The notes beneath the pieces were generated by a model. The model ran no database searches, was not told where the DNA came from, and saw only the letters and a list, made by a program, of their open reading frames with translations. From Catajapyx aquilonaris (taxonomy: Eukaryota): a stretch of DNA of 64,000 nucleotides. Positions 17,985 to 47,075 of the stretch are shown here, one piece after another. Location: NCBI GenBank assembly GCA_000934665.2, contig KZ538079.1:62001-126000 (forward strand), in the 5' to 3' direction. Within the stretch, counting starts at the first letter, position 1. Every line of letters starts with the position of its first letter. The translations under genes and the position numbers were made by a program.

Positions 17985-18094
17985 ATGGGTGGTCGCGGAT
18001 GCTGCAGGTCCAGGAGGAGACCGCCACGTGGGAGCAGCAGCAACCTCCTATTCTTGCAGAGGTTCACAAACTCGCTGTTGTCGCTCATCAGCAG
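17985..18094 (+). CDS. Candidate alternative first coding exon of the IQSEC gene (MGGRGCCRSRRRPPRGSSSNLLFLQRFTNSLLSLIS)
   Basis: ATG at 17985, 36 codons + 2 nt, donor AG|GTAATG. Phase 2 fits constant exon 1. Lies in a GC-rich island within AT-rich flanks. Confidence 0.6.
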
Positions 18095-21000
18095 GTAATG
18101 TCACATCATCTCACCTGTCCGTAGCGGAATCTGGCACGAAAATTGTACTCGCAAGTCGCAACAATCAATTTCAGATCAAGCAATGGGTGCCAAGTCATAC
18201 TTATCAATATAAAGAAAAATATGTATAACCAACGACCAATTGAATTCACATGAAGCAATTAGTTTCACACGATTAAATTTAGTTATCGAAATATTTTCAT
18301 TCATTTCAAGGCACATGTAAATAATATTCAAGAAATTCACTTTTTCTCTCGTTTGAATGCATATGTTTCTGGAACCGTTCCCAGAAACTGATATGAGATT
18401 TTACACACGTCTATTTTGGGTATAAAGTGCTACGGTGTACTACTGTACATGTATATAGTAGCCTACGTTTACCTTATTTAAAGGTATACACTCACCTTCA
18501 AAAAATCACGAATCTTGCATGCTTCGGTCCAAATACACATTTCGCAATTCAATAACGCGATTTAATACACACCGGTTTAAATTATTTTTCCGTAGAGCAA
18601 TTTTTATTTTTCAAAAAACGGCTCTAAAATTAACATGCAAACCCGGAGTATGTAACAGTAAATTGCGGTGAAATGGTGAACTGTGGGCATTTGTACCAAA
18701 TGTTGCAAGATTTTGGTTGAAGATGGCTAATGAGGTAAATATAAATATGCTGTACATTACACCGTAGCACTGTATACGTACCAAAAGTGCGTGTAAAATG
18801 TCATACCGGTTTTTGGAACAGTGCTGGAAATACATGCATTCAAACACGAGAAAAAGTACCTCTTGTAAATGATATTTTCGTACCCCTTGAAATTAACATT
18901 AATTTTTCTATAACTAAATTTGATAAAACTAATTGCTCTATACAGCGTGAATGCAATTGGATGCGAGTTTAACTATTTTTCAACAAAATGTATGACTATA
19001 TGACTTATTAACCGCACTTATTGCCTGATCTGAAATGGAATCACTCTTCAATGAAAGATTCCATCCTGGGCCACACAAACGTTGCAGAAATTTCCTCTGA
19101 ACAGTACCAAAGGTCCGTTATGGGCAGGCTTCATAAGAGTTTGGTATTAAAGGGGGCCTATAACGGATCCGTTATAGGGGGCGACAAGTTTCCGCAGTGT
19201 CCAAGGTCTTTTTACCCTCTGAAGAGCAATCGCTGTCAACAGTTCCGTCATTTTTTTTTGAAAAGAGTCAGTTGTCATTAAACATTTCTGGCTCCTTTTC
19301 CAGCCGGAAAATATTTACTGGAAGTGGTATATCCGCGAGATGGTGCGAGTAACAGCATTTAAAACATATACGACATTCATATGTGTAGAAATCGATGTTA
19401 AGGCGAGATAACTCCACGCAGACGCGGGATACAATGCGGCCAGGTTTTTTTTTACTGATATATATACCGGCACCACGAAACACTGAAAAACCGGCTGTAA
19501 ATCAACCTCCTTAGTATATATAGACAGAGATAGACCTTCTAGATCTTCGTCTCCTGCTGAGATACTGTGGTGGATTGGGATTTTGGGAGAAGGTCTTGTC
19601 TCCCCGTTTGCATTGGAAGTGCTGCTCCGCCTCGGTGCAGGGTGGTGCATCGCCCAAGTTCAAGTAAAATTGGAGAAAATTGCTGGAGTGGACAATCTTG
19701 AATATATACTGTGGTTCGTGGGCCGTGTGTCACCCTGTATTTGCAACCAAAAAAATGCGAGGCAGAAACTCCATCTGTATCTATGCCCTTGGGGTCGCAC
19801 AAACTTTTCTATGCAGCTTTTTTTTTGATGAGTTTTCTTGCCTGGGAATGGAAGGCAACAATGGAGAAGTTTAACCTCCTAGAAACCAGTTAGAAAAAAA
19901 ATAAGCTGGTTGCTGGAGCGAACAAACTGGGCAGGTAATGGGCGAAATGAATGGGCGCTGCATTAAAATGTCACGCAGAAGTAGCTTAAGGGCAATTTAT
20001 GTTGTCAATCGAATGGTGTGCGGTTGTAATGAAAGGTGCGTTGATAGGCCACGGGATTTAATAATAAGCTCGTTTCAATATTGGCGATTATCGTGAATCG
20101 AAAGGGCATCAGGTCGGTAACCGAGAGAGGGTCGAATAAAGGGCATTGTTTGCGAAATATTGGTGCTTTGCAAATAAATATTATATTTACATAATATATG
20201 AAGCAGACTGTTGGTATTTATGTATGTCACCACGGCTACCTAACCCACTTATGGAGTACTGAGACTGCTAAAACCGTAGGTGTGTAGCCACTAGCCAACC
20301 TCATATCCCGGATTCGTGGGATATCCTCCCGGCTGATCCGCGCAACCCACCTGGCCCCCGGACCGTGCTTAGTGCTAAAAAAACGCGGTCGAAAGTAGTG
20401 CAAAATAGGGTGAAGGTCTTCCAGCAAAGCCAGGCCTAGTACACACACACCCACCCACCCACGGTATCCCATAGCAACCCTTACTCTGGACCAATTCGCA
20501 GGGACCGGTCTTGCGCCGATCCTGACGTCACCCATCTCTTTTTCCGGACTCTCTCTACGAATCCCAACTGCAATCACCTTTTTCCAGGGGAAGACTCCGG
20601 AGCGTGCAGGTACAATCCGGTGCTGCGGGGGTCATAGGTCAAAATTATAAATGTGTTGCAATTGCCCGGCCGCGAAGTGTGTGTGCATTCATTAAATTAG
20701 GCGGTGTGTTCGAGACTTAATGGATTGTTAAGAGGCTGTGTGGGGAGGGGGTTATCGATTTGGGTGATAGGAATAAGTGACCTTCGAGTGACGTTAAAGA
20801 GGGTGATATGTCACTGTCTGGTGGAGGTCGAGATAGTGGTATCCCCCAATGTCTGGCCCGTTTGCTGATACGGTGATTTAGATAGGGATGTGACGGTCTG
20901 TTCTTAGAAGAAGTTTTTTCACAGTCTGATGAGACTTGGTTGCACGAATGCATATTAAATGAGAAAATCTACTATTAGTGTCGGATAATTTGAGATTTTC

Positions 21001-21732
21001 ACTAATATATTCGTTTATACACCGGATATTGCTAATTCCATGGAGAATCGGTAATTTTTGCTCGTTTGCGTAAAACCGTCGTAAATATAATCGGAGATTT
21101 TCCTTAATTAGCTTTCATGCAACCAGTCCTTAAAACATTAGATATTAGCTGTTAAACCTCTCAGTGTTCGTATACAAGTGTCGATGGTCACAAGTCCTAT
21201 TTATTTATTTATTTATTTACTTGGGGTGGAACTGAGCTACTTCCTGCTAAGTTAGCAGGGGGAGAAAATGCGACCATTATTTATTAGTTAAGTTTATTTG
21301 AATATATCAGGAGACTGGGCATTTTACGTAATTTGTCATATCTGGGGAATTCATTGGCAAGTAAGCAGCTCCCTAACTAAGTTGCTAGAGACGTTTACAG
21401 CTACCATAACTTCCGGTATGCGACTATTTCCGCGTAGGATCCCTGTAGCAAACTTGCTGAAAACGTTAGAAGTTAGTAGATCGTAGATACGGTGTTTTCT
21501 GTTCGTTATCCGAGCGTTCAGTCACATCAGCAGACATCCGCTTCGGGCATCTCCTTTATCCCAGGTCGACACTATCAGAGCCACACGTGTTACATTGTTG
21601 TCATTCGCTAAGACACGACTTTTGTGGGATGCTGCCAGAGCAAAAATCAGTTGTTGTTTTTTATTACCACCGAAAACTTGACCTTGTGCCCAATAACCAG
21701 TTTTTGCTGAGATGTGACCGACCCCAGGGTCT

Positions 21733-21812
21733 CCTATAAATAGGCAGGTTGCCAGGAACCCAGGGCGTCTGCGTCGCCCTCAGGGAGACGCCGACGCCCC
21801 TGAGACGCCCCC
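21733..21812 (+). promoter_or_regulatory. TATA-containing core promoter candidate with clustered GACGC/GGCGTC motifs
   Basis: CCTATAAATAGG at 21733-21744 followed by several GACGCC/GGCGTC motifs, upstream of candidate exon 21857. Confidence 0.4.
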
Positions 21813-21856
21813 AATATTCAGATCACACTCGGCAGCAGACAACACCCTGGACAAAA

Positions 21857-22044
21857 ATGCACAGCACACGTCTGACACATTCGGAGGCGACTAGGCCCAG
21901 GGCCAGGCCTAGCTCAGTCGCGCGGGGCGGCGCGGCCACACGCGGCGCCCGCGCAGCTGCTCAGTTGCACCCGGTCAACATTCTGGTGCATGGGATCCGT
22001 CGCTTCTCACTCTTCTGCGCCCACAGCGACGACGACGACGACCG
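21857..22044 (+). CDS. Candidate alternative first coding exon (MHSTRLTHSE...HGIRRFSLFCAHSDDDDD)
   Basis: TATAAA at 21735, arthropod-type start context CAAAAATG, 62 codons + 2 nt, donor CG|GTAGGC (phase 2), strongly GC-rich. Confidence 0.55.
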
Positions 22045-24720
22045 GTAGGCGACAACTGGGTTCACACGAGTTGTCCCTGTCGTTGTGTCGTTGCGGTTGG
22101 GACACAACGCCAATGCTGATTGGTGAATCCCCAGCCGCAACGACCCATCGACAACGACCACCGCGTGTGAACACAGTCGGTGTTGTGCCTGTTGTGCCGT
22201 GACGTTTTTGTAGTGTTGGCAACTCCAGTGACCTGAATATCCCCGGGCTTTTGAATAACCGTGAGTGATGAAAAGGAGTCTCCATCCGCATGCCGAGCTC
22301 ACTAATATTAATTGAGCGCGCGTGCAAGATTAATCCGGAGTTAACGCGATTACGCCGTCTGCACCCGAGGACTATACGCCACTGGTTTTCCTAGGAGCAA
22401 CCCGAAATTATTCCCAGCTGGAAACCTTGGGCCGCAATGGCGACTGGACTTTATGCACTGCTTTAATGAGCACCACCAGGGTTAATGGGGTTTAAAAGTA
22501 TAATGAAGGACTGGGTCTAGATATGACGTGAAAATTAATTTAATAGCTCCTCGCCACGCTGCTTGCGACTCGCTGCCTAAAAGCGTAGCGAGAAAATCTG
22601 CGCGCGCAGCCAGTCCAAAATGAGCTTCCATGACACTTTTTGATAACTCCAAACCTGAAATTAGCCAATATATAGCCAAGGACCCTCTATTATAATCAGT
22701 TTGGAAGTGCGGAGGCGATTGAGTTAACAGGTCGAGCTAAATTGTTAATTAAAACTAATTTTATGAAGCGAGGGTCTGGTAACAAAGCTGCGCGGCTCAC
22801 TCGATTCCGATCAACTTCCGGGTCCCAACGGTTTCAAAAAAAAAGGAAGCTGAGGACGGGATTAGGGCAGGTCATGGTCGTTGGAGAGACTAATCGCGTT
22901 AGGTACTAACCTATCTGAAATAATGATGATAATTTAAAACTGGTTCTACACTATGGGCCAACTAGTTCTCACTATGACTCCCTGTAGCATTGTATATATT
23001 TTTACAGTAAATTTATTTTAATGTAATAAGATTTTGTTGTGTGCACTTATTCATATTGTAATATTTACATCAGGTTTTTTTATATTAGTGTTATTAGTTA
23101 AAATAAATTAACTTGAGAGTATGTGCATTTGATGTTTTTCAGTGTATTTGGTTTTTAGAATTTTGTATTTAATTGTTGTATTGCTATCTTGGGTTTTATG
23201 TTATTATTACATTATTTTTGTTCAATGAATTATTATACATTTTATTTTATTGCACCTACCCCAGAAAACATTTACCGGCTGGAAATGAGCCAGAAAAGTT
23301 GTTATTCGGCCGATTTTTTTTTGTAGGCAAGTTTTATATTAGTTATTATTTGTCGTATAAAAGTATTTGCATTACGCAACTTGCTGCCCCCTTTTCGTGA
23401 TTGGCTGCAGCAGCAGCAAACTTCCGGTGCAACTCATGCTATTAAGTTTCTCAGAACCATTAAGCGCGGGTAGTTAAAGAGTCATCAGTCACACGTTATT
23501 TTTGAATGTTATCGCTGAAAAGACATCTTGGGGTCGTCAACAACGCAATAAAAAATTTCTTGCTTTTATCGTATAGAAATATGTGGAACAGATACACATA
23601 GGGTGGTCTTTGGAATATCGGACCGCGCACTTTTGTACTCCACACGTGTAATTTCACTTACGCTAGCAGATGTCGTATCTCTATATGAATAGGTCCAGAC
23701 CGGTATGGAAAACGGTCCGTGGCAACTGGTATTTTTTGGCGGAGGATTTGCATTGGCCGGTTTCACAAAACTGGAAGGATAATAATTGAGGCACGTGGGG
23801 GTATTATGCCCCCCTCCCCCCTCCCCCGGATCGTTTTTTTTTTGGCGGTATATAGGGGGGAAGCCATTCATTTAGAGCAGTGCATTTTTTTGAAACGGCT
23901 TATAAAAGGCAGGCCCTTACTTCTCATTGAAGCAATTGCGTCAGTGACATTGACATGCTTTGCGGGGTTATGCTCTGAAGGGTGGAAAACGTGGGTTTTG
24001 TGCCGAAGTGTGGAAGCGTAATTAGTCCGCAAAAAGGGGGTCCGTTACATGCGGTCTGACTGCCCAACCTGAAATGTACAGGGTGCGACAGGAGAGTCGG
24101 TTGAAATTTTAAACCTGACCTTGACGAGTAAGCTAACTGATAAAGATCTGCAGAGAGATGATTTTGTCAGATGTAACTAACGTATATGGTTTCTCCAACC
24201 TAACTATCCGTTTATGGATAACTGAAGTTTTGTTTGATGCTGGATGTTAACCGTCAGTTAACATGTAACGGATCTTACTGGCCGTTTACAACTGACCGGA
24301 GTTTAAGGTTGATGAAATTAACTGTTAACTATCAGTTAAAACCCAGACGCTATACATGGTTAGCTTATTTAAGCAGTTACATTTGAACAGCTACTTTCCT
24401 GAGTAGGGTAACCAAAATATTAGCTAATTACCATTCGGTGGAATCAGCAAGTGTTTTAAAAAGTTGTCTGCGGGCCTAATCTGCAATTTAAAATGGGTTT
24501 AACAGTTAAATAGGTTTCTTGATTTTGTATTATGATCGGAAATTTATTACAGTTGAAAGTCTTATATAATTCTGATAAATTCTCTCAATTCAAACTCAAG
24601 GCCCAAATTAACGCTTAATCAATTCAAATTCAGTGTCTAAATTAATTCAATTAAATTATTCTGCTCGCTTTAATTGAAGGTCTGAATTAACTACACAATA
24701 ATTATCAGTTCTACTCGAAC

Positions 24721-24938
24721 TACACGGTGATGCAAATTCATGGGTTGTTTTTTTATAACTAATATCGCCCGATAGTAGTTATTTTTTGTAGATTGTTGTG
24801 CCCCGATCCAGGTTTCCCGTTATGGGATCGAATATTGCAGTTGCTATTGGGGGTCACGTGATTAGGACCACAACAAGCTACAATCGGGCGATATCAGTTA
24901 TTTTAAAAAACCGACCCACGAACTTGGAACACCCTGTA
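24721..24938. mobile_element. Tc1/mariner-type MITE (~214 bp)
   Basis: TA on both sides. About 60-bp imperfect TIRs: CACGGTGATGCAAATTCATGGG...ATATCGCCCGAT versus the reverse complement of the right end, CAGGGTGTTCCAAGTTCGTGGG...ATATCGCCCGAT. Confidence 0.8.
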
Positions 24939-26683
24939 TTAGTAACTATTATTTGAAGCTGTTTCGAAGCAGTTTAGTGCAAAACACGTTGGAAACACGC
25001 TGCAGAAATAGCTGGGTTATGATTGGTGGATTCCACCGACAACGACCGAACGACACCGACTCCAGTGTGAACCCCTTCTTATTTTCTCAACGATGACCTA
25101 ATCGGCTAACCATGCTTATACATTCCGATACAGGCCATGCACACCACATCATCTTGACTCAGCGGTCACATGTCGGTCTCCCCGATAACTATTAATAATC
25201 TGACCGCACATGACGTCACCAGGTGCGATAACTGGCCGCATAATCGATATCCCTCCCACCTTTCCACCCACATTTTGAGACACAAAACGGTCCGGTGCAC
25301 TTGCGCTTGCCACCTTTTTCATATCATCGGACCCACCCCCTCTTGCAGTGTGTGGGTTTGTGGATGCGGGGGTTGAGCTTCACCATTCGTGGTCCGGTGG
25401 ACGGTGCGTGCGGAAGGGGGATTCCGGGTATACACTATATTCCGGGGGTGGGGGGTTCTGTAAGCCAAGGACAGTTCGTCACCCAACCACCCACCAGCAC
25501 AGATGAGGAAGAGGGAGGCTGAGGAATCGATAGCATTGCAGGGGCCTAGTGACCTGATTACTCTGGGTGGGTGTAGTGCACTCTATCCGAGCGGTTCCAG
25601 GGGAGAGGGCGCATCCTGGAAGGTAGGCAGGTTGCACCAACACTTTAACGGACGGTTATTAAGAGCGGGTTAAGGTAGTGTGGTCACCAAATTCGTAAAA
25701 AAAAATCCGTACGATTTGTATGAATTTTTTTAACGGAAAGTGCAAACATTAATTGCAATTAGTAGATGTCACTTGGCGTGGCATTTAGCGTACAGTTTAG
25801 CTCTTATAGGGTCAAAGTTGTTGAAACTGAGTTTTAAAAATTGGATTGTTAACAAAGAGCGGGGTTTTGATGCGGATCGCGGTTAGGGTTGATTAATTGC
25901 GTTAAGCTCATTACGGTGCGCGACCTACTTGTGAATCGCAGGGTGAGAAACCGGTGACATTTGCGGGGTTTTACTGCGGAATTGTACGTGTTAGGTGCAG
26001 TTAATGTGGGAGCGTTAAAATCATTGCATGTCGTTGCACCAGGGGAGCATCCTAGTTAATACAAAATATCAGTTAGATTTTCTATTACAGTTTTTTTATT
26101 TCGCCAAATTGCCAATATTGTGTTTCGTTTTTGAAAAAATTGGCATTGGTTTGCTTTTCTAGTTTACTTCAGTTGTCAGAAATATTGGTTTGCTTTTAGG
26201 GTGAATTAGCACATTTTTAAAAACCCACTGTAGCATGATAAAAATGGATAGTATTCTTGACCTTTAACTGGACGTTGCGCAATTTTTAATTATTTTAGTT
26301 TTTAAATTTAAATTGTGGGACTATACACTGTGTACAGTAGCTTGCTGAAATTTTAACGGCAACAGCTGACAGTTAAACTAAAATATCCAGAAGCGCCAAA
26401 AGGCAAGCTTAAAACTTTGTTGTAAAAAATTTAATGGGCTGTGTATATATAAGCACGTTTTAGAAAATTTTTGTTTCAAACCTCGTTGCATGGCAAGCAG
26501 CGTAGTTAGCATTAATTAAACACGGGGAGTGAACCCCACACCTGCTGGTTAATTAATGTTAAATGTGCCGGCCTTAATAGCGGGCATCGGGCAGAAAATG
26601 TGAAACCCGTTACGCAACCTATTACTAAAACTTTTTTTTTCAAAGCATTCTTCCAGCTTGCATTTTTTAAAGCCTATTACACG

Positions 26684-27061
26684 TACAGGGTGGTGCATTG
26701 CGCAAGTACACTAATTGTTCACTCCAGCAACCAGTTAAAAGGGAAGCAACAATCACGATTGTTGGACTGTGTATGTGCTGAGGAAATTGAGTTATTTTTA
26801 ATTTAGTTAATTAATTTAAACTGATGCCAATACGCCACTATAGTAATTACCGGCGTAATTCAAACAAAATATTTACATCGTGACAAATCTAATAAATGTT
26901 AATTTGCAATTCTGTAAACATCAATTAGCCATTCATAACACATTTGCTTCTCCCTTTTTTTTGCACACAGTACACTGATTATTATTAGTTTCAATCGCGA
27001 ATGGTGACTGGTTGCAGGAGTGAACAATCTTACTGCTGACTTGTGAATGTGCCACCCTGTA
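26684..27061. mobile_element. Tc1/mariner-type MITE (~375 bp)
   Basis: TA|CAGGGTGG ... CCACCCTG|TA ends. About 55-bp imperfect TIRs sharing ATTGTTCACTCC(A/T)GCAACCAGT; a related fragment lies near 27940. Confidence 0.8.
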
Positions 27062-27653
27062 ATGCACATTTTAATTCCTGGGTCGACAACCCTCCCCGTG
27101 TGCCATACTTCGAAGGTAATATTCCATAGCGCCGCACAGTCTCTTCCGGTGCAAGATAATGCAATATTAATGGGCAAAGTTCGCTTCCCCCATTGTGTGA
27201 TCAATGCACACTTTTTTTGCAAACTATTTTTTAAGCTATCTTTGCGAAAAAGTCAGCTGGTTTGTCCAGTCTGCTTTTTTCGCGAAACTTCGGGCAACCG
27301 TGAAGAGAGTTTTGCACACACTTTTTTTTACGACTAAACTTCGCAACAGGGTGGCCAGGTGGACCCACCATCTTTGGAGGGTTTTTACAACCTTCGCAAG
27401 CAAAAAAAAAAAAATCTGCACGCAATTCATGCCGGGAGAGCTGCAATCGGCAGCCTGGGGCCATTACCGCCTGATTGTTTTTTTTTACCCTTCTACCTTT
27501 TTCCAAGCGTTGTGCCGTGGCAAATATACTTCTCTGAGAATCGGCCAGTGCGGTTGGTCTGTTTTGTTTGACGCGAGCATGTTGCAGTGCGTATGTGGTG
27601 GTGGTGATGGCAGTGTGTGTGCGTGTTGTTGTTGCAGTGGACACTAGAAGATT

Positions 27654-27721
27654 ATGGATGCGCCTTCGTTGCTCTGCGAGTTCGTCTGGGTCAAGGATTT
27701 CAGACAACCTGCATTTAGCCG
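27654..27721 (+). CDS. Candidate alternative first coding exon (MDAPSLLCEFVWVKDFRQPAFS)
   Basis: In-frame TAG 9 nt upstream of the ATG, 22 codons + 2 nt, donor CG|GTAATG (phase 2), preceded by a GT-rich leader-like stretch. Confidence 0.4.
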
Positions 27722-30700: not shown

Positions 30701-32545
30701 GAATACTATCCCGAAGTTTGAATGGGGGTCATCATATGTCAAGGAATTTTCAGGGCAACTGACCCATTTCGGCGCAGAAGAGACACGAAATCTTGTGTGT
30801 CTGAATAATTGTCTGAATTTTTTAAAAGGAGTTTGCGCAATAGTTTGTTTTTCTTCGGATTTTTTTGCCGGTCGGGGAAAGGCGCCTTTCATTTGAGTCG
30901 AGTGTTTTCGTTGGCATAAGAAGGGTTTGCAGGTGTTGGAAAGAGGTGCACTTGTTTTTTCTCTCTCAAAGGACACCATTGCCATGAACTGGTAGCATTA
31001 AGTGAAGGCTGTTGCTATGTCCGTAGCGAAAGTGATTCAATTTTTTGCCCGGTTGATTACAGAATTGCGGAAATTCCAGGTTGAAAATTGTGCGATTTTG
31101 TCATAGAAATGTAAAAGTGTGGAAATCACTTATTTCATAATAATATCACTGACAACAACTTCAGAAAAATTGAATGCGACAGTTTGAGTGAAATATAATC
31201 AGTGATAAAATTAGTCCCGCAGGATAGAGTATTTTTAAAAAATCATAGAAATCGTCCTTGATGCAACAACCGTCGTGGATTATCCCAATAAAACTTTTTA
31301 AGTGGATGCAAATCGCTCAATTATCAGTGAAGGGCATATCCTCGCTAATAATCAAGTTGTTTGTGCTCACTACAGAGTTATTATACTTCAAGCAGGAAAT
31401 CGGCAAAATTGCGAACTTTATTTTTCGCAATTCCACAGTTTCGTAGAAGCTCTTGATAATTGTGTTAAAAANCCCCCCCCCCCCCCCCAAAAAAAAAAAA
31501 ACAATCCTAGTAATTGGCCACGTACAGGAAGACAAGTTCCTATCGCAAATGGAGCTCGACTCCGGTCGTAAATAACTCAAGGCCTCACTTGTCAGCTTCA
31601 AAAGCATTGCTGGTCACTCACTCGTCCAGCCTCAATCCCTTTGACAAAAGTTACCCCCCAGATGTGACCAAATAATTTGCCTATACAGGGTGTTCCATAT
31701 TTGGCAGTAAACCCCAGTTTTGCCCCCCAGCTGTTGTTTTGCTGACCATGGAGGGCAGTAAGAAGCAAATATACCTCTAGGCCCCAGCTGTGGTGGCCAG
31801 AAAAATGGGGTCGTAAATGATATGTGCATGTTTGGTACAACTCATGATGGCGTGATCGAGGCGGATTGATGTGCGTTTTTATCTGGCCAATTAGGAGTCA
31901 AGGTAGGAAAGAGCTGACCATTTATGGGTGTGGCAGCCTTGGACTAGAACCTAGAAAAGGACCATCATTGTGCATGGTTTTTTAAAATATTTGAGTTGTA
32001 CATGGTGTGTCATCAAGTAGGCACAATTTTGTACAGTATGCATAAAAAACATAGATCGAGGCCAAGTTTGTTTGGCAAAGTTCAACGTTATGTTGCCAAC
32101 ACTTTCAACACTCAACCCGCATTAATCACACACCAACCCCCGATTATCTCCGGCGTGTGTCTCACAACCCCCAACTCTCCATCATCTGCTTGTAAACTAC
32201 CTGGCGTAACTCTTCTTCACACAGAAGTTTTTGTTTATATGTATGGGATGCTCCTATAGTGTGTGAGTGTGGGAGTGAAAGTGTGTGGGGGTTCAGGAGG
32301 CGGAGTTAGACGTCTTTTGGCCTCGGAGTCGGACGGGACTGGAGCTCATTCGGTGTCGAACTTAACTGTGTTTCGGAAGCTACAAACCGTGCAAAAACAT
32401 TATGGTATAGTAACTGACATACAAAAAAAATACGAGCGTTTTGCTTGCATTACGCTGACACAGTTCTGCATGGTAACTCAGTCTTGCACAGTGTACCGTT
32501 GGGTCCGTTCGCATTTGGGTCGTCTTTATAGTGTTGTGGTGTGAT

Positions 32546-32565
32546 ATGGCTGCTATTTGTTATTG
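32546..32565 (+). CDS. Candidate alternative first coding micro-exon (MAAICY)
   Basis: ATG plus 6 codons + 2 nt, consensus donor TG|GTGAGT (phase 2). Inr-like TCATTC about 200 bp upstream. Confidence 0.4.
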
Positions 32566-33394
32566 GTGAGTTATACTGTACCAATATAGGAATGTTGATT
32601 AGTATTCAAATAGATTCGGTGGAAATTGTCAGTTGAATCAGAACCGGGAAGAGTAATCGGATGGTCCATGAGCTGGATGTTGATGGAGTGAAAGGTAAAC
32701 GCCGGGTCTTGTTAAGCAACTGGTAATTTCACATCCATCATATATGAGCGCCTGGAAATCGAATTTTCGTGTATAGAACGAAAGGTAACGGATAGTTATT
32801 TGGTGTCGTGGGATGTAGTTTTATTAGGTACGGAGGTGGACTGGTTTGGCCAGATGCTGCTTACTTCTCTGTTTCAGGAACAGATTTTTTTAAAGTATGA
32901 AGTTTAACGAACCTTGCAAGGTCGAGTCAGTCACAATGTCGCCCACTAGCTGAAATGACAATTGATTCATTTGAAATAAAAAAATTGCACATAATAATTT
33001 TCATAAGTGAACCAAGTCGGTATTTGCCCTGTTTGCCCTACAACTTCGTGCAGATTGTCCTATTGTCACACTAGCAGCAAGGTCACACTTGTCACCACCC
33101 GGAACCACGAGCCCGTTTAGCGTAATGTTTTTTCGCGTGCAATCTGGTCATAATCGGCGAGCCTGTCAAAAATCAGTGCGTGACGCCAATGCCACGTCAC
33201 GGAATAAATATACGGTACACGGTGCACCAAACTGAGCTTTACACTCACATTTTAAAAAAACAGACGACTCATTACGTAGGGGCGTAACTTTCAGAATTCG
33301 CAAATGAACCACATACCAGCCTGGAGAGTGGATTAGTTCGGCATACACCTTTGCGTGTGTTGTGTGTGTGTCGAGGTGACATAAAGGGAGTAAC

Positions 33395-33546
33395 ATGGAG
33401 AAGGATTGGTCCCAGTGCTGTCACAGTGGTGGCGTACCCTTGAGAGACTTTTGCGACACGCAGCGTCTCCGTCAACGACCCCGAAAATCCGGGGTGTTGC
33501 ATCTCCTCTGCGGGCTCGGATTGGAACTCGCTAATTGCGTTGACAG
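33395..33546 (+). CDS. Candidate alternative first coding exon (MEKDWSQCCH...LLCGLGLELANCVD)
   Basis: Context AACATGG, 50 codons + 2 nt, donor AG|GTATAC (phase 2, weaker). Inr-like TTAGTT at about 33333. Confidence 0.45.
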
Positions 33547-36500
33547 GTATACCTTTATTTTGAAATTATACTCAAAAAAGTGTGGTTTTCAGCTGAAGCA
33601 ATCAGTAGTCCGGTAGTGGGTTAGGCAGCCCGGACATACAAACAAACATCGAACTTTCCCATTTATACTGTATAAGTGACAATAAAAAATTATTTCAAAT
33701 TTATTGTTGAAAACGATATTGCCCTGGATGTATCGAACTTTTCATGTTCAATTTTGGGACATCCAAACCTGTCTTTATCAGCTATCCAATCCACCTGTCA
33801 TGATTTCGCGAAAAGAAGCCCCGCCATCTCAGCTCCAGAGAGACTGGCGCCTGCCTTAAAGCAGTGGTGTTATTTTGGAATGGGGCGTGGATGGCTGGGG
33901 CACACACCAAAATTTATCTGCCTTCTGCCCGCATTTGGTTACGAGACATGTTCTGTTGCCAAGGGTTTCTCCCCTGATGCTTGTTCCTCCAAATAATAAA
34001 ATAAGGAAGAGACACCGAATACAAAAATATAGGTGTTGGCATATAAGGAGCGGGGATCTTACGTGTATTGAAATGCTCAACACCTTCGTCTCCATAAAGT
34101 TCAGGATGCTGATTAAGCAAGGTTTTTTTGTGAAGTGAAGGATGGCCCCATTCCCTGAAACCGGGTGTGTTGTTGGGCCAACCATACCATTAGGATGAAG
34201 CAGTTACGACGTCTTTCTGGCTCTCTCCCACACCTTTTGTTGGTTAGCCATTAGACACCCTTTTTTTGTATTCGCAACGCGGCTTGTAACCGCGACCTGA
34301 CCTTTGCGCAAGGTCCGCTTAACAAGTTGCTCTTCTGGGAATCGCGAAACTGGCACAAAAGAAGGTGATGCTGAGGGTGGGCGCCACCTTCAAAGGGCTT
34401 CCCACAGTGTATTATTGCTAAAGCTATCCCGGATGCGACCCTTTATCAGCCATCGGAATCAAAGATGATATGCTAAAGGTCAAGAAGCATCTGATGGCAA
34501 TATGAATTTCTCAACCAACAATATAATTTAGTTATAAAATAAATTATAATTATGCAAAATATTAACTCGCGAATATTTTCGCTAACCACACGTTTTCGGT
34601 GACCGGCATAAAAAGCGATGAAATATGTCGAATCGATGTTGACCCCAAAATGAGGGTCCAATTGGACACAGTACGGCCAAGGTCGTGTGCGAAATTGCTT
34701 TTTTTATTATAGGTATACCGGTACTACATTCCCCAAGGACGTTTCCTCAGGCAACCGAGGGCATACCGACACGTCTTGCTTCTTCCTTCTTGGAACCGCA
34801 TCATTCGAGCAGCCAGATCATGGCAGCGTTTGGTCATCAGCAAAATGATGTATTGCGAAGGGGATGGTTGAATCTCGGGGTATTTTAGTTCCCCGTTTAT
34901 TATATATGGCACTATCTAACCTTGGAAAATAAATTGTGTACACAAGTGTTATCGTATATGGGCCTGAAAGATTGTTATTGTGGATAACATTATCATATTA
35001 TTGGATCTGTGACTTTGCCCGCGATGAGTCATAGTGCGCCATCTATGTGATAGATATGGTACTACGTCCACAATCAAGTTTTTGCCTGTGGGTTCACTCC
35101 CTTTTTAATTACAAATAATATGTTAATTGCTAATAAATGCCGACAGGTTGCTGCCTTGGCACGTGTATAAGTGGCATGTACAAGTTGTCCGGGACAAAAT
35201 CCGGATAAAACGGAGGGAATCACTGTTGTTTACGGCCCCTGGTTAGAGGGCGGAATTGGAAATAATCTGGAAATTTACGCCGACATTTACTGGCACTTTA
35301 GGGAGAGTTATACGGGCCATGGTGTGTGTATATATCTGGCACAATTATGTAGCGGTTAGACCCACCCAAAAAAACCGTAACTGCAACCTGTCGATGGCAT
35401 GTCTTGAGAAATCGGGGGGGCCTATTGATGATGGGACTTGCCGAAAAAATGTCGCGTGACAAGGTCAAAGTGTGGCGCCCGAATGCCTAGGTGCCCCTGC
35501 TGCGAAAAAGGTCACGACCCCAACAAGCTAGGCACGCGTGCCGCCCGCTGGGTTGCCCCCAAAAAAATTAGAAAAAGATTTTTTGACGCACATGTGTGAC
35601 CCGAACTTTTTGTGCGCGTGTGTACAGGGTGATCCATTTTCAGTTACATTATGGGCAGCTACGATAGTTATAAGTTCTTAGCTATTTTTTTGAGTTGCAT
35701 GTACAGTACAAGTATTTCCAACCCCGATTTTTACTCGTGTACTTACGTCGTATGACCTTCAAAGTTTACTGGATTGAATTGAAATTTCCGGAAGTGTTGC
35801 ATCCTCATGACGTGCGCAAGGTCGGATTTTAAAAAGGGGGTACAGATAGTTTAAAAAAATGGTTAAGTAAACCAGTAGCTTGAATGGTGTGGGATTCGAC
35901 TAGACACATACTCTTCGCCGGATTTTCCAAATCCTGGTAAGCCTGAATATTACATAAGACGTTTTTATCTTTTGCAAACATATTTCTAAGAAGTGTGTCG
36001 CAAAAATGTGACCACAAAATGTCAGGATAGAGACCGCCCTCTTCCTGGCCATGAAGAATGGCAATGGTTTGTGCCCAAGGCGAAAATCTGGTTTCCCGCA
36101 GACTTCGTGGGGTTATTCGGAGGCAGAGAGAAAATGTACTGTCAAGGTTTTTGCAGCGTGTGACCTCGGTCGGCAGATGGCCACAAGACTTCCGATTCCT
36201 GTGAGGGTGACCTTCTTAGTACTAACTTGGGCAGTGCTGTACACCAAATTCACACACATCCCTGTTAATTACTGGGATCCGAAATATTGTGTGGACATTT
36301 GCAATCTGCATTTTGGGCGCCCAGTAATTAGCCACATGTTTAACAACATTGAGGGGTGGTCATAATCATGACTATATGTGTATACTCAGCAGCATTCCAT
36401 AATAATCAAGCAACATGCCGAAAACGCCTCCATGCTATTGCTGGATGGGCAGAAATTTTCTGAGAATCGCATTTCCACAGCGTTTTAATAATGCATTACC

Positions 36501-36763
36501 CCAGCTCCGGGGTTTTCCGTACCATCCACGGTCCCTGTTTTGCATAGCCATCCGAGCGTGCCGATTAGTGCTTGTGTGCTGCTACACACATCTATCCCTC
36601 CCAAGCGACTAGCTCGAAACAAATCGACAAACACCCAGCATGTATAGCAGCGTGTTTTGTCACACAAAAAAAGTTTCGTACAAAAAATTGGATCGAAACA
36701 ACCGTCATTACTCTACCAATAGTCTGATAATTTTTTTTTTTAATGGCAACTTTCTCGAATTAT

Positions 36764-37633
<870 letters not shown>

Positions 37634-38109
37634 AAGATACGTTCGTCCGAAACATTTTCTATTGTTGACATACACTGTACGTAGTACATGAATATTGTGC
37701 ACCGGCACGTGCATGACCCGCAGGTGTTGAACTGATTTTCTCCTCTGCCACACGCCAGCTGCTGCCCCATCCAAACACCTGCCCTCCCACCCACCACCTT
37801 CCCAGTTCTTAGGCTCCTAAGGCCATTTGGGCTCCCCCACTTTTATCCTCAAACATGAAGCAACATCTTTGAAGGAGCCCCAGAAAACCACCTGCCCATA
37901 CCAACCCTGGCCCCTGATTGGTCCACAAGGCGCGTGGCCCACACTGGAATCTTGCACACACAACCCCCTATTGTCAGCTGGAAGGTTGCTGGCTTAGGGT
38001 GGCCATCTGGCACTCTGGGAGCAGTGGGCACGAGTCAGGGGGCAAAACAGAAGGTTCTTGGACATTTTGGAGAGAGGAAGCATTTCTCGGTGGGTCTCTC
38101 TCTGGCGAC

Positions 38110-38141
38110 ATGTTGTTCTGCATATCAGGATTCATCAAGGG
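38110..38141 (+). CDS. Candidate alternative first coding exon (MLFCISGFIK)
   Basis: GACATG, 10 codons + 2 nt, consensus donor GG|GTGAGT (phase 2). Confidence 0.35.
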
Positions 38142-39579
38142 GTGAGTCGCACACGTGGGAGGGACACATATAGGACTTTAGACATTGGAAGATTGTGTTA
38201 AACCACAAGTGACAGTATGATCAAAACATGTTTATAGTTTAGTGGTTATCAAAAATATTAGCTGCTATTGATGACCACTACAATAATAAGCAGCGTACTA
38301 TCAATCACAACTCGCAGCTTTGCAGTTTCTGAAACTAGGTGGAGTCGCTTAAAACGCAGTTAAAACGGGTTTGAACCTGATTTCCTCTTCTTTGTTGACA
38401 TTTTTTTCCCCACCACCCTTGTTGCCTCCGTGGGAGGCAAATGAGTTTAGGACATCCCCCCCTGGGGTAGGTCCGGCAGCAGTCCTTTCGAACAATAGTA
38501 CCCTAGGAGTGACTTACGGCCCTCATAAAACTGGCTTGTCAACTTCCAGGTTTTTCCCAGGTTTTGCTTCCATGTTGACCCCCCAAAATTTCGGCCTATA
38601 TGTGTACTTTCATCATTCTCCCCCTGGGGGCTTATTAGACGGTCCCCAAAAAGCCATGGCGCGCCATATTCTTGGCGCTATAATGGCCCCCCATGAATAC
38701 GCAAGTCCCCCTTCCTCTTTTAATGAATTCTGCCCCCCCAACTATAAAAGGAAGGGATGCTGCGAAGAAAAGGGAGATTTTGGAGCTCCCGTGGGAAAAA
38801 CCCAGCCATTGACACACTTTGGAGCTACAAAAGTGCATTTTCGGGGACCCAGAAAAGTTTGGCACGCTGAATTAAATATGGCGTCTATTCAGAAGAAGAA
38901 CATGGAGCTGTGGCCTGAGTGTATGGGTGTGCACTGGGCTTGTGTTCCCAAGCTCGCTAAAATCGGTTTTAGCCAGATAATTTCTCACCCTATTCGTACA
39001 TTCACTTCTGGTGAAGCCGAGGCAACTAATGCCATACAAAAAAAAAAAAAAATCTCAAGGTCACATTTCTCAGTAATTAATTGCCGTTACCTGCGCAGGT
39101 GAGGGGGCTCAATAGCTACATTTAAAAAAAATCTGGGGCCAGGTGTCAACCTAGCCAGATGGTAGAGATTTTAGGCGGCCCCGAGGCACAGAAACTCCGA
39201 AGGACGTTTTCAGAAAATCTATATGCAGCACGGAATGATTCAAGTCGTCTCCAAGTAATTATCAGGCCGACCATTGTTGCTCGATCTGTCCTTCGGCCGC
39301 CAAAGCTCGCAACATATTCATTTCCTATGCAGGGTCGAGCAAGAGGAAATTAGGTTGGCAGCCATCCATAATTTTCAATGGTTACACCGGAATTTTGGTA
39401 CGCCTTTTTTTTTTGGGGGGGGGGGGGCATACACGTGCCAGATGGCATCTTCAGACAGATGGAGGACAGCTGGTTAAATATTTTTTACTTAAATTTTTTT
39501 TAAAGGTGATGTCATTAAAAGAGTCCTGATTGGACTGGAATATTTAATACCAATTTCATACCTATTGCACTGTCTCCAT

Positions 39580-40240
39580 GAAAATTTTCCTGCTCGAAAA
39601 GGGGTCAGGAAAGTTTTCTGGCGGTGGTGCAACCGGATAATTTCATGCAAATTTGTACCTATTTATAGCCATTTTATAGCTACCTGTTTATCGACCTGAC
39701 ATCGGAACGTATAGGAAACTTTTTCCGGTTGGGGAAAACAAAAAGCCAGGAAAATATTTTCTGGCGGTGGTGCGACCGGACAATTTCATACCCATTTATA
39801 TCTGTTTATACCTGTTTATCTATCTGATATCGAAAGGTTGCACCGTCTCCAGAAAACGTTTCCGGTTGGAAAGAAGCCTGGAAAGTTGTCCGGCCGAAAA
39901 ATGTTTTCTGGCTGTGGTACCAATTTTTACTTATTTATATAGGCCTAACATCGAAAGATTGTACCGTCTCCAGGTGAAATTATCGCCGGCTGGAAAATGA
40001 CCAAGAAAGTTTTCTGACATTTTTCTGCCCGGAAAATGTTTTCTGGCGGTGATGCAACCGGACCATTTATCATACCTATATTTGGACCTGACATTGGAAG
40101 GTTGCATCGTAAATTTTTCTGTTGGAAAGGGGGCCAGAAAAGTTTTCCCGACTCTTTTCCGGCCGGAAAATATTTTCTGTTGGTGATGCAACCGGACAGT
40201 TTCATACCCATTTAGAGCCCATTTAATGTCCAGATTATCT
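39580..40240. repeat. Degenerate tandem repeat, ~135-147-bp unit, about 5 copies
   Basis: TTCTGGCGGTGGTGCAACCGGA-like motif at about 39616, 39759, 39906, 40041 and 40175, with shared GGAAAA/CCTGACATCG flanks. Confidence 0.8.
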
Positions 40241-41919
40241 GATATATTGTTTCGGATTTGAAAACTGCGGTATCCTTGTTGACCACGTGTTGTTGGGCGC
40301 ATTGTCCTCTTTTGTTACGGCGGCTACGTCATATCCGCCGGTCCACGCAGTTTAGGTGCGTAGGACCTCACGCAAAGGGCACGCACCGGCACGCACAGTA
40401 TTGATTGCAAGGCCTGGGTTTCCGCCATGGCACACACTCTCTAAAGTCCAGCTTTTCCTCTCTCTCGTCTATGGTTGGAACACAACTATGGATGCTGCGA
40501 ATTTTTCAGCACAACCTGTGGATTTTGGCGGGTATGTAACGTGTACGCATGTTTGATTGTCCCCAAACAACGTGGACGTATTTATACTGGCGGGTTCGGG
40601 TGTCCGATGCAAATGGACTGATCTAGTGTTGAATGGGCTGCTGGGGGNGGGGGAGGAGGAGGAGGAAATGAGAGATTCGGTTTCGGAACCGACCGGTATG
40701 GTGTCAGGTTACATTCCGTTGCTATAATGACGTATACCTATCATGTTATTTGGGCTGGTCAGTTCACTATCCTCTATGTATACTGGCCATTTGATGTAAA
40801 TGTAACCAGAAGCAGGGTAGTAGTGTCATAAACGATGTATGTTGTCATCCGCTATTTGGCAAACAGTTGGAAATCTCAAGGTGAATACTCCGTTATTGTC
40901 ACATGTCCAGACCGTGCTTGCAATTACGGTAATTGCAACACATCAGCTCCACCCAACCCATAGCCATGATAAAGGATCGCGTGTCTATCGTACATTTTGC
41001 ACCGTGATAAAGACGAATGGTTAGCCCTTTTTCCCCAACCGATTTCCGCAATCATTTAATCAACAATGGTTTCAACCAAATCTGCAATTTTAATTAGGGC
41101 TCTATCGAGGAAAAATAACCGCACCTGTCTGCATTTTCCTCGTATGCTATGCGAGTTAATGAGGCAACAACTTTTTAACGTCGATAAGTCAAGGTTATTA
41201 CAGACTCTGCATTTAATTGGATGATCAATCGATTAAGCCTGGGCGACCTAATTACACCCGTTGACTCTCTCGATTAAGCCATTTTTTTAGTCGTGGCTCA
41301 ACAATGGGTGGGTACTCCATTCAATCTGGGTGACAACAATGGGAGTGACTCATGTTGATAAAGCGATTTGTTCAGTGTGTTATCCGATGGACAGCCGTCA
41401 GTCTGGCCTAATCGTCCGATGTGGCAACAGCTGCTCTCGTGGATTAACCCTTGTTCTAGGTTACTAGACTGGTATATTATAGTGTTGAAGGCCCTCGTGC
41501 TTCAAAAGTTGATTATTAACACTCGTCACTCGTACTGAGATTCATGGATAAAAACTGTTCACACAACCCATTTTTGTTACAAAATAACCATGGTGCTACT
41601 TTCTAGTGTGACGTCACTCGATCTACGTCACGCCCCGTCACGCCAGCAGTAACACGTGTCACTGCCCGTCACGCGAAACGTGACACATGTCACTGTCCGT
41701 CACGCTGAATAAACCTTCCTGTCCCTCACCTAAGGTGTGTTGTTCTTGATGGTTGACAACAAAAGTTCATTCCTGCCAGAATCCGGTGTAAGTTACCCCA
41801 CAGATATGCTCCGGAGTAACTTATTATACACCCGTTGCTGTTTGTACCGCCTTCTATAATTGGCTGATTCGCATCACGTGACCATATTTTTAACCTCCTA
41901 TTTTTTTCCTCCTTATCAG

Positions 41920-42180
41920 TGCGCCCTTGAAGTCGGAGAGGCCACCATGCGGACCAGGCCCCTCAGTGAGCAGCGGCTCCGCCCAGGCCACCCCTCGGCC
42001 AATGAGCAAGTCGTACAGCGTGGACGACGCGGCCGGCCCCGCAGCCCAGGGCTGCTCATCCTCTGCCTCGGCCAATGGGATTGCCAGGAGCCGCCAGAGG
42101 TCAGTCAGCGGTCATGGGTCAAAGAAGCCTCCAGCCAGGGCCGCTGACGATGTCCTCAAGAGGTCCAGGGTTCAGACCGG
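41920..42180 (+). CDS. IQSEC1: IQSEC/BRAG (schizo-like) ArfGEF, constant coding exon 1 (261 nt, phase 2-2)
   Basis: Acceptor ttttttcctccttatcag at 41919 and donor gtcagt at 42181. Encodes ...ADDVLKRSRVQTG, which joins in frame to YELSQDLLDKQIEMLERKYGG of the next exon, matching the conserved IQSEC KRSR...YELS.DL.DKQ.EMLERKYGG block. Confidence 0.85.
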
Positions 42181-42239
42181 GTCAGTCTTCTCCCTCCAAC
42201 CTTTGACCCTTACGAGACCGTTTAATAATACAAGTCAAT

Positions 42240-43188: not shown

Positions 43189-43228
43189 AGAGAGAGAGAA
43201 AGGGAGAGGGAGAGAGAGAGAGAGAGAG
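43189..43228. repeat. (GA)n tract
   Basis: Visible purine dinucleotide run with a few interruptions. Confidence 0.85.
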
Positions 43229-45315: not shown

Positions 45316-46492
45316 GTATGAGCTGTCCCAGGACCTATTGGACAAGCAGATTGAGATGCTGGAGAGGAAGTATGGTGGTGTCCGAGCTCGCCATGCTGCC
45401 CTGACCATCCAGAGGGCCTTCAGGAGGTACACTCTCCTTAAGAAGTTTGCGGCCATCACTGCCATGGCCAAGGCGGAGAACAAGCGCTTGAGTCGCAGGC
45501 TGGCACCGGTTGACCTGGAGCGTGACCTTGGACTCATACTGCAATCAAATGGAGAGCTGTGTGACGGTAGCGATGATCCAGAGTCACTTATCCGCAACAA
45601 CTTTGCTTCGCTGTACCGAGAACTGAGTGACACTTTAGAGAATGGGTCGAGCCATCCGCCAGAAAGGAAGGCACATCCAACTAGAGCCTTTTCACTGAGG
45701 GAGCGGAGACCACCTTCACCCCAGTCTGGTAGCCAAACACCAAACCATCGCTTGGAGTTGGAACGAGTTACCAGCACACCACGTGGTGGGATCGAAACGG
45801 AGTCGGACTTGTCTGATCGTGAGATGCCATCGTACAGTGCATTCGAAGAGAGTTCCGTGTACTATACGCCAACAGTGTTGACTCCATGCCGCAATCACAT
45901 AGTCCGCCATGGTTCAATCGACAGCCCATTACGGATGCCCAATGGAGTTAACATTGATGCCAGTTGCTATTACACTCCGCGTGAGTCACTAAGCGAAGAC
46001 AGTGGTGTTGGGAGCGACCGCCATGTACTGTATCCACGTGGTTCCTGGCGCGATGCAAGTGTGTGGAGCACTCCGCAGCAGGGGCGCTCATCACGCTCGC
46101 AGTCACGCACCAAGGTCCCACCCGAGGTTCCAAAGCGCACATCCTCAATCAGCACTCGGTCAATGTCGACGGAGACTCGGTGGCAGGAGACTACGTGGGT
46201 CGAAGAACATTACCACCATCATCACCATCACCAGCAGCATCACCATCACCACCAGAGAGGATATGTGGCAGCTCCCAGCCCCCAGTTTGTGAGGTCACCC
46301 AGTCTGACATCAGCCGGTGCAGGCGATGGGGTGCTGGGGAAGTCCTCGGTGGATAATGGAAGCATGTCCAGCATCCAGTCTTCCAGCAGTGACAGCAGCA
46401 GTGTGTCTGTCGACAGGGTGGTTGGAGAGACTGAGCTGGACTGTGCGGGCAGGCCTGGAAGGACAAGCCCGGTCTGGAAACGGAAAGGACAG
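45316..46492 (+). CDS. IQSEC1: IQSEC/BRAG constant exon 2: IQ-like motif plus long Ser/Pro/His-rich linker
   Basis: Acceptor tgttgtctccgcag and donor gttagt at 46493. Contains MLERKYGG..ARHAALTIQRAFRRY (IQ motif), KVPPEVPKRTSSI and SPVWKRK; matches ORF 45338-46543. Confidence 0.95.
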
Positions 46493-46549
46493 GTTAGTAT
46501 CATGCAAATTATTGCACTTGTCTTGGACCTAACGTATTTGTAATTTCAG

Positions 46550-47014: not shown

Positions 47015-47075
47015 GTATGGTTATATTCAGATTGTGTACAAACCGCAGTAATTTACACCTGCTGTTTATAATTAG

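Follow-up and report, generated by a model that had tools for sequence, protein, structure and literature searches.

Proteins of the schizo (siz)/IQSEC family of ArfGEFs occur in forms that differ at the N-terminus. In Drosophila, the products of schizo/loner, Schizo P1 and P2 (also Loner Iso1 and Iso2), differ in their first 12 residues only, and Schizo's N-terminal portion is required for plasma-membrane localisation, according to the available portions of the report (PMC10810563). For human IQSEC1 (BRAG2), the accessible part of PMC7955138 describes variants v1 and v2 that arise from alternate initiation sites, whose N-termini are unique and lead into a common extension from exon 3. This extension precedes the IQ-Sec7-PH core, and a variant without it exists (PMC7955138). 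Alternative first exons are thus a real feature of relatives, already described, as far as these partial sources and the decapod isoform sets go.

The DNA analysed here is a window of 64,000 nucleotides from Catajapyx aquilonaris (contig KZ538079.1, positions 62,001 to 126,000, forward strand). In this window, a first-pass annotation had proposed an array of six variable, Cys-containing first exons that feed one constant ArfGEF body, in the manner of the protocadherin or UGT1 clusters.

Results

The gene on the + strand of the window is an ordinary arthropod schizo (siz)/IQSEC (BRAG-type) ArfGEF. Its six constant exons, spanning 41920-48573 (Table 1), encode Sec7 and IQ_SEC7_PH domains, as identified with Pfam, and splice into a stop-free model of 1086 residues. 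Sec7 is split across two exons and is followed directly by the family-specific PH domain, IQ_SEC7_PH (PF16453; E = 5.5e-47 and 4.9e-11). N-terminal of Sec7, exon 45316 encodes an IQ motif, ALTIQRAFRRYTLLKKF, identical to that of named IQSEC proteins such as P0124; identity over this segment is 89-94% in the listed homologue rows. In Pfam, the motif matches only a related IQ model, below threshold (E = 0.0078; 16.2 bits vs a cut-off of 27.7). The homologues are arthropod IQSEC/siz proteins in 120 of 120 cases among the matches listed, and a damselfly isoform is 53% identical to the gene product across 985 query residues. Drosophila siz belongs to the same family and is probably the orthologue; its identity is low outside the domains, and the linker and tail of the window gene are lineage-specific. 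The window holds the body of the gene and part of its 5' region, and the gene extends upstream beyond it.

Table 1. Constant exons of the schizo/IQSEC gene and candidate first exons, in window positions
Feature	Position	Strand	Remarks
Candidate 1	17985..18094	+	no support
Candidate 2, possible alternative first exon, 62 codons including GIRRFSLFCAHS	21857..22044	+	RRFSLF match; unproven
Candidate 3, just past a TG-rich tract	27654..27721	+	no support
Candidate 4, 6-codon island, consensus donor TTG/GTGAGT	32546..32565	+	no support
Candidate 5, donor GTATAC	33395..33546	+	no support
Candidate 6, predicted alternative coding first exon, 32 nt, MLFCISGFIK + GG	38110..38141	+	N-terminus conservation
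Common "N-terminal extension" exon, 261 nt	41920..42180	+	entered and left in phase 2
Constant exon with YELSQDLLDKQIEMLERKYGG, IQ motif (ALTIQRAFRRY) and long low-complexity linker	45316..46492	+	
Constant exon, linker and first part of Sec7	46550..47014	+	Sec7, E = 8.8e-18
Constant exon, remainder of Sec7 and start of IQ_SEC7_PH	47076..47574	+	Sec7, E = 1.9e-41
Constant exon, IQ_SEC7_PH and start of C-terminal region	47648..48208	+	E = 5.5e-47
Last coding exon, end ...HSTEV	48275..48573	+	stop TAA 48571-48573

The first of the constant exons begins at a strong acceptor, tttcctccttatcag/T (a slash marks the exon boundary). Its reading frame is open only from the second base, and it must therefore receive two bases from an upstream coding exon. 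The earlier claim that it needs a phase-2 partner is borne out by this and by the conservation of its opening codons. The accompanying statement that the exon has no start codon is incorrect if taken literally, since an in-frame ATG is found at 42002 (and an out-of-frame one, gccaccATG, at 41947); it does hold in that the exon lacks a conserved start. The 27 codons ahead of 42002 are conserved coding sequence, LKSERPPCGPGP, compared with KLDKPPCGPGPP in an odonate and KVDRGYCGKGPPG in a decapod. Thus, an upstream coding exon is still required. The motifs ERPPCGPGP, KSYSV, RSRQRSVSGH and DVLKRSRVQT of this exon also occur in relatives. Because both of its ends are in phase 2, the exon could be skipped in frame, and in its architecture it can be likened to the exon-3 extension of human IQSEC1, as far as the available text describes the latter. 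A common exon of this kind, with no conserved start and a set, non-zero entry phase, is what alternative first exons would lead one to expect.

To place this arrangement among relatives, RefSeq isoform sets from Panulirus ornatus (X2-X19), Macrobrachium, Photinus and Zootermopsis were compared; these are annotation models, used as protein sequences and names. As proposed for the present gene, the siz/IQSEC sets of decapods and insects carry many short N-terminal peptides on one constant exon. In Panulirus, five different peptides are joined straight to the same SPVKVDRGY exon, and there are four such peptides each in Macrobrachium nipponense and Photinus. The number of N-termini per gene is 4-9, and annotated coding first exons in decapods are as short as 2-7 codons. 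Cys is found in 26 of the 38 distinct short N-termini (11-16 expected), and makes up 5.2% of their residues vs 2.0% in the protein bodies. The isoform classes include M[LI]IC[IL]SGF and, in decapods, M[RK]V.LK.RRFSLFS. Other conserved classes (a coiled coil, VVCTTR and MFxLGS...YLKVTC) were not found in the window, the search being limited by an assembly gap (N run at 4146-4335) and by the window edge; most likely they lie further upstream or are absent from this gene.

The six proposed islands do have the coordinates and local features first given for them, namely a starting ATG, a frame free of stops, a length that is 2 mod 3 and a GT immediately after, and all six have a purine at -3. These properties are common by chance. 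Of the 742 ATGs on the + strand between 1 and 41919, 448 are followed by one or more phase-2 GTs ahead of the first stop. They make 921 ATG/donor pairs, 41 of which have a donor that agrees with the consensus at 7 or more of 9 positions. In the minus-strand control, 385 out of 689 ATGs qualify, with 769 pairs and, among them, 30 strong donors. By these criteria, the six islands are not above chance; an ATG with an open frame and an in-phase GT has no discriminating power alone. The presence of Cys in all six peptides has P ~0.02 for unselected peptides of equal lengths (our own arithmetic, with a Cys frequency of 0.037), and Cys occurs in 740 of 1685 control islands. As for the TATA- and Inr-like elements reported upstream, a TATA box was found at candidate 2 only and simple Inr-like pentamers at 2, 4 and 5, with neither element at 1, 3 and 6. 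A scan of the three ORFs around candidates 1, 2 and 6 detected no Pfam family. The islands of the first-pass annotation may have been picked for Cys.

Candidate 6 is set apart by its similarity to homologues. Judged from its sequence, 38110-38141 encodes a deeply conserved N-terminus, M[LI]xC[IL]SGF, found across Pancrustacea. Residues 1-9, MLFCISGFI, align to residues 1-9 of MIICISGFI or MLICLSGFV, with 8 matches among the 120 listed N-termini and 13 in an enlarged set. A start of the form M[LIV][LIVF]C[ILV]SGF is found in 19 of 296 full-length arthropod isoforms, from lobsters to flies, and Cys4 is invariant in these 19 tag-bearing homologues, near the N-terminus and in a hydrophobic/basic context. 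The donor, GGG/GTGAGT, is the consensus and is in the required phase. Splicing from 38141 to 41920 would create the junction codon GG/T (Gly) and the N-terminus MLFCISGFIKG-APLKSERPP, and the alignment continues across this junction into the K.ER...CG.G of relatives. The tag and junction are the same in Drosophila persimilis P0049, which starts MIICISGFIIGE and continues SFPQKSIER. Across all six frames of the window there is one occurrence of the motif (0.00024 expected per window; none in 300 shuffles). Upstream, the nearest in-frame stop is at 37915, with no in-frame ATG between, and the preceding 300 nt contain one ATG vs about five expected. At 26.5 bits, the tag match does not exceed the best control islands in bit score, which reach 29.9 (+ strand, at 12752) and 26.9 bits (minus strand); its weight comes from the anchoring at residue 1, the breadth of lineages, the phase and the rarity of the motif.

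For candidate 2 the indications are suggestive only, and come from a match of 6-8 residues. Its RRFSLFCA corresponds to RRFSLFSA in a decapod first exon (residues 8-15), where the distance to the donor is similar, and RRFSLF(S/C)A is common to this candidate and the decapod first exons P0144, P0152 and P0164. No other R[RK]FS[LIV]F is present upstream on the + strand. At 24.4 bits, the match ranks 7 of 1685 control islands, and about 0.1 such matches would be expected for the six peptides together (our own calculation, based on the bit score). The candidate has a TATA box ahead of it at 21735 (ctataaatag) and the start context caaaATG. The donor, CCG/GTAGGC, is weak (6 of 9 consensus positions), and the sole ATG precedes RRFSLF by 46 codons, vs a Met 7 residues before it in decapods.

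Candidates 1, 3, 4 and 5 cannot be told apart from the roughly 900 chance phase-2 ATG...GT combinations on the + strand. In the comparison with 195 distinct homologue N-termini, their ranks are 143-837 of 1685 where there is a match at all; the sole match of candidate 4, whose ATG is preceded by TCAGTC 68 nt 5', is a 4-mer. Donors are weak in 3 and 5, as in candidate 2. A missing match does not disprove these candidates, because lineage-specific first exons would show no conservation. In this gene, then, one first exon is indicated by conservation (38110) and a second is only suggested (21857). Further first exons beyond 38110 are likely, since relatives carry several N-termini per gene, and some of the other five islands could be among them.

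Discussion

We consider it likely that this is a schizo/IQSEC gene whose alternative first exons feed its common exon 41920 in phase 2, with 38110 as a conserved tag exon and the other five islands unproven. Exon 41920-42180 would then be reached from promoter-specific first exons, and 38110-38141 would add a hydrophobic, Cys-containing tag of 10-11 residues, MLFCISGFIKG. We infer both the use of the 38141-to-41920 junction and a separate promoter for the tag exon. The original proposal therefore stands in kind, as in relatives and in human, and for 38110-38141, with its residue-1 match, rare motif and phase-2 consensus donor; it does not stand as a six-member array, because candidates 1, 3, 4 and 5 lack conservation and have features common to hundreds of chance sites. 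An array of Cys-bearing tags in which each of the six islands is a genuine, promoter-specific first exon is scarcely credible. Such an array would agree with the shared ATG, open frame, phase-2 GT and purine at -3, and with the many short, often Cys-containing first exons of relatives, down to the 2-7 codons annotated in decapods, but more than half of the ATGs on either strand satisfy the same criteria, four of the candidates rank low or are unmatched, donors are weak in three, and the six share no sequence. Possible, though rather unlikely, is that candidate 6 is accompanied by at least one more real first exon among the islands, most likely candidate 2 and then candidate 4. The RRFSLFCA match, TATA box and caaaATG of the former, the GTGAGT donor and upstream TCAGTC of the latter, and the 4-9 N-termini per gene of relatives argue for this; however, 7 of 1685 control islands equal or beat the match of candidate 2, with about 0.1 expected, its Met distance is unlike that of decapods, its donor is poor, and candidate 4 matches by four residues only.

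Two further explanations dispense with the tag exon. It is very unlikely that the window's coding first exons all go unused and that transcripts, entering 41920 from non-coding first exons within the window or beyond it, are translated from ATG 42002. Some annotated isoforms of relatives do begin within the equivalent exon, e.g., MNGQLVAVRD... and MAMGGARMP..., but here the 27 codons before the in-frame ATG are open and conserved, the strong out-of-frame gccaccATG at 41947 would catch scanning ribosomes first, and the tag exon keeps its ATG, frame and donor intact. We regard it as highly improbable that 38110-38141 is an evolutionary relic, no longer spliced. F3, which is I or L in relatives, is a substitution inside the motif, and position 10 has an unusual Lys, but the exon keeps its ATG, its 10 codons, its phase and its consensus donor, and the upstream 300 nt are depleted in ATGs.

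The variable exons of protocadherin and UGT1 clusters are paralogues that each code for a large functional domain. Such clusters have in common with the arrangement favoured here that several first exons, presumably under separate promoters, serve as alternatives and are joined to common downstream exons. The candidates in the window differ from them in encoding peptides that are unrelated and 6-62 residues long. When the six peptides were compared all against all, no match was better than E = 0.98, and the six regions show no DNA similarity, with nothing longer than 11 nt shared upstream. A cluster of the protocadherin/UGT1 type is therefore rejected, and the analogy drawn initially fails, as the candidate exons are not paralogous, do not each encode a substantial domain and have unrelated upstream regions.

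The tag may have a membrane-targeting or lipidation role. A more specific idea, which we hold to be doubtful, is that the M[LI]xC[IL]SGF tag, of 10-12 residues, is an S-acylated or membrane-inserting address label, that the Cys excess in relatives reflects repeated evolution of lipid tags, and that some Cys-bearing islands are young members of this set; an island starting MGGRGCC... would, we presume, fit a myristoylation-plus-palmitoylation pattern. If this were true, promoter choice would set the membrane on which this Arf-GEF acts. In the literature searched, we found no study on the role of the tag; the only report of IQSEC S-acylation found concerns Cys960 of mouse Iqsec1 and not the N-terminus (PMC10996552).

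For annotation, the gene model would consist of the six constant exons and, by conservation, one mini first exon of 32 nt. Exons of this kind are usually missed by gene finders. The tag exon would thus represent a 10-residue N-terminal tag retained across Pancrustacea on an Arf-GEF.

A schizo/IQSEC gene body entered through a phase-2 splice

The plus strand from 41920 to 48573 encodes an Arf-GEF of the IQSEC/BRAG type. A model of six constant exons (see table) has AG and GT at all borders and yields 1086 stop-free residues with the C-terminus ...HSTEV, whose last part (...STEV, 48559-48573) resembles a class I PDZ-binding tail. Pfam places two Sec7 matches in the gene body, at E 8.8e-18 and 1.9e-41, together with IQ_SEC7_PH, a domain specific to the family (E 5.5e-47). 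All three domain features of the IQSEC/BRAG family (IQ, Sec7 and PH) are present, and the gene belongs to it. When the large constant exon was used as query, 411 of 8000 candidate proteins matched at E<=0.001, and all 120 of the matches listed were arthropod IQSEC/schizo (siz) proteins. The best overall match was a damselfly isoform, with 53% identity (about 65% in the Sec7-PH half).

Positions of the constant exons and of the candidate first exons
Feature	Position	Strand	Remark
Candidate 1	17985-18094	+	candidate first exon
Candidate 2	21857-22044	+	candidate first exon
Candidate 3	27654-27721	+	candidate first exon
Candidate 4	32546-32565	+	candidate first exon
Candidate 5	33395-33546	+	candidate first exon
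Candidate 6	38110-38141	+	candidate first exon (tag exon)
Constant exon 1	41920-42180	+	six-exon model
Constant exon 2	45316-46492	+	six-exon model
Constant exon 3	46550-47014	+	six-exon model
Constant exon 4	47076-47574	+	six-exon model
Constant exon 5	47648-48208	+	six-exon model
Constant exon 6	48275-48573	+	six-exon model

Constant exon 1, hereafter exon 41920, encodes the common N-terminal extension. It has a strong acceptor, and its sole open frame begins at the second base; it therefore needs an upstream exon ending with two codon bases, as the first-pass annotation had argued. Because its 261 nt also end in phase 2, it can be skipped in frame, which agrees with the earlier proposal of 45315 as an alternative acceptor. 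The same annotation held that this exon has no start codon. There is in fact an in-frame ATG at 42002, but the 27 codons that precede it carry motifs kept in relatives (K.ERPPCGPGP), and coding must therefore still begin upstream of the exon. A 67-codon frame that closes at 42147 starts inside the exon from an out-of-frame ATG at 41947 with a perfect gccaccATG context; this frame could serve as an overlapping upstream ORF in transcripts whose non-coding first exon is joined to exon 41920. At 41627-41705, 215 nt 5' of the acceptor, lie 2.5 copies of a 31-nt unit.

Searches with exon 41920 gave no match at E<=0.001 among the longer proteins of the protein collection. Among those of near length there was a single match, a 98-residue unnamed protein (40% identical) that is apparently a read-through of a genomic exon and is uninformative on first exons. 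The representative library returned one spurious repeat protein, and a metagenome scan found no relatives. None of the collections searched with this exon yielded anything closer than the damselfly, and the host is thus an arthropod lacking near kin in them. No Rfam family was found in the window, and a Pfam scan of 18 long ORFs found no family.

Only one of the candidate first exons is clearly conserved

Six Cys-bearing alternative first exons had been proposed to feed this body, and all six islands do have the ATG, open frame and phase-2 GT described for them. Such islands are common. On the plus strand from 1 to 41919, 448 of 742 ATGs are followed by one or more phase-2 GTs ahead of a stop (921 pairs); on the opposite strand, a control of no use to this gene, 385 of 689 do so (769 pairs). 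Donors matching at least 7 of 9 consensus positions occur in 41 pairs on the plus strand and in 30 on the opposite one. Only the donors at 32566 and 38142 read GTGAGT, and the other four are no better than those of many chance pairs. Cys is present in 740 of the 1685 ATG/phase-2 GT islands that served as background for ranking the peptides (44%). The caution in the first-pass annotation that some candidates may be chance was, on these counts, well placed.

The homologue set for comparison of N-termini grew from 120 to 327 proteins after two cluster look-ups, of which 296 are full-length, with 195 distinct first 15-mers. In this set, the MLFCISGFI of candidate 6 has counterparts that align with it from the first residue of both sequences: MIICISGFI of mosquitoes and Drosophila persimilis, MLICISGF and MIICISGF of ladybirds, fireflies and leaf beetles, and MLICLSGFV of Homarus and Panulirus. 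This tag motif opens 19 of the 296 full-length isoforms. The codon at the junction, GG/T, supplies the Gly that occupies position 11 in insects, and the alignment extends from there into the common exon. In six frames of the window the motif occurs once, compared with an expected number of 0.00024 and none in 300 shuffles. On the 5' side, the frame is first closed by a stop at 37915, no in-frame ATG intervenes, and the 300 nt upstream hold only one ATG, counting all frames. Judged by this conservation, candidate 6 is clearly a real first exon, and its junction with exon 41920 is presumably used.

A perfect (AT)52 microsatellite lies at 37404-37508, about 600 nt 5' of the tag exon. The predicted intron that separates candidate 6 from exon 41920 holds a stop-free plus-strand frame of 249 codons (38353-39099), unusually long for 42% GC, for which we found no Pfam family and no usable protein atlas match. 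Its peptide looks loosely repetitive, like the degenerate repeats at 39.6-40.2 kb in the same intron, a tandem duplication (39606-40211) with an offset of about 140 nt and 65% identity over 507 nt.

Candidate 2 and a decapod first exon, M[RK]V.LK.RRFSLFS..., have RRFSLF(C/S)A in common, and the decapod exon joins the same constant exon. A TATA box stands 120 nt 5' of candidate 2, and its start context is caaaATG. Its match scores 24.4 bits, as much as is reached by 7 of the 1685 control islands, its Met is placed differently from that of decapods, and its donor is weak. As an alternative first exon it is suggestive only. The remaining candidates rank 143 (candidate 1), 293 (candidate 3) and 837 (candidate 5) among the 1685 islands, and candidate 4 has no match. 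The proposed array of six is not supported; the first-pass annotation was correct on the phase requirement and on one exon of six.

Several further resemblances were rejected. RRRPPRGSSSN of candidate 1 resembles decapod RRQPPRGSAAD, a segment of the constant region and so no first-exon match; its CRSRRRPP reaches 19.3 bits against Photinus MCTTGDCRRRR (rank 143 of 1685); and another frame over it, VVAHQQVMSHHL against decapod VVVHQEAVPHHL, scores 24.4 bits, lacks a continuation and then meets a stop. For candidate 3, LLCE and FVWV rank 238-293 of 1685 against the coiled-coil and mosquito forms, and the Cys-rich stretch 5' of it is a TG-rich tract with a stop between tract and ATG. The best score of all 1685 belongs to a plus-strand phase-2 island outside the proposed six, 12752-12843, whose MRSHLTPTPDP resembles a weevil start, MRNHLTPSPAP, at 29.9 bits; this is within chance, with about 0.7 such matches expected over all islands, the likeness does not go beyond 11 residues, and the flanking sequence has a repetitive look.

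Alternative N-termini in relatives and their predicted use

The arrangement that the first-pass annotation inferred, variable first exons on a constant region, exists in this gene family. Among the 15 siz isoforms seen in Panulirus ornatus there are 9 different first 12-mers, with 5 different peptides joined straight to one common SPVKVDRGY... exon. Such peptides number 4 in Macrobrachium nipponense, which also has a coiled-coil form; Photinus pyralis has 4, and Zootermopsis 3 and an internal start. Four classes recur across orders: a long coiled-coil; the M[LI]IC[IL]SGF tag; MFxLGS...YL[KR]VT[CY], common to decapods and odonates; and VVCTTR, in beetles and Hymenoptera. Neither tblastn nor motif scans nor profile HMMs detected a class other than the tag in the window: with 120 and then 193 homologues, upstream tblastn matches were of low complexity only, motif scans returned only the CISGF and RRFSLF sites, and HMMs of four classes gave best E values of 0.38-4.4, i.e., noise. 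Very probably, the gene extends 5' beyond base 1 of the window, and an assembly gap of 190 N in the upstream region (4146-4335) adds uncertainty. Single Ns lie at 31472 and 40648.

Three things are established here: how the phases fit together, what the body is, and that one tag exon is conserved. In the most likely scheme, separate promoters would drive first exons, each spliced either to 41920 or, skipping it, to 45316. The body (IQ, Sec7, PH and PDZ-ligand-like tail) would stay constant while the first 10 to ~150 residues vary. To this scheme belong a promoter 5' of 38110, use of the tag-exon junction and a function of the tag, all of which we infer. The gene would work like siz P1/P2 and IQSEC1 v1/v2. 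It is not a protocadherin/UGT1-type cluster, to which it had been likened, because its variable exons are not paralogues of one another and fall short of domain size. The six candidate peptides show no mutual relationship, nor do their flanks, and no intra-window repeats were found at their islands. The architecture is an ordinary one, already described, for which the species is new.

A membrane or S-acylation role for the tag is a reasonable guess, because its invariant Cys4 lies within a hydrophobic stretch. Cys occurs in 26 of 38 short N-termini of relatives against 11-16 expected, these peptides being mutually non-independent, and makes up 5.2% of their residues, compared with 2.0% in the bodies and 3.7% in the control islands. 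Cys-richness is also expected of exons newly born from non-coding DNA. In the literature on siz/IQSEC and acylation we found no study of the M[LI]xC[IL]SGF tag; the only IQSEC acylation report found is a proteomic one, on Cys960 of mouse Iqsec1 (PMC10996552).

On the 3' side of the gene there is a pair of direct repeats, each about 225 nt long (55099-55322 and 56958-57184), 94% identical and 1.86 kb apart, which may mark the termini of a mobile element.
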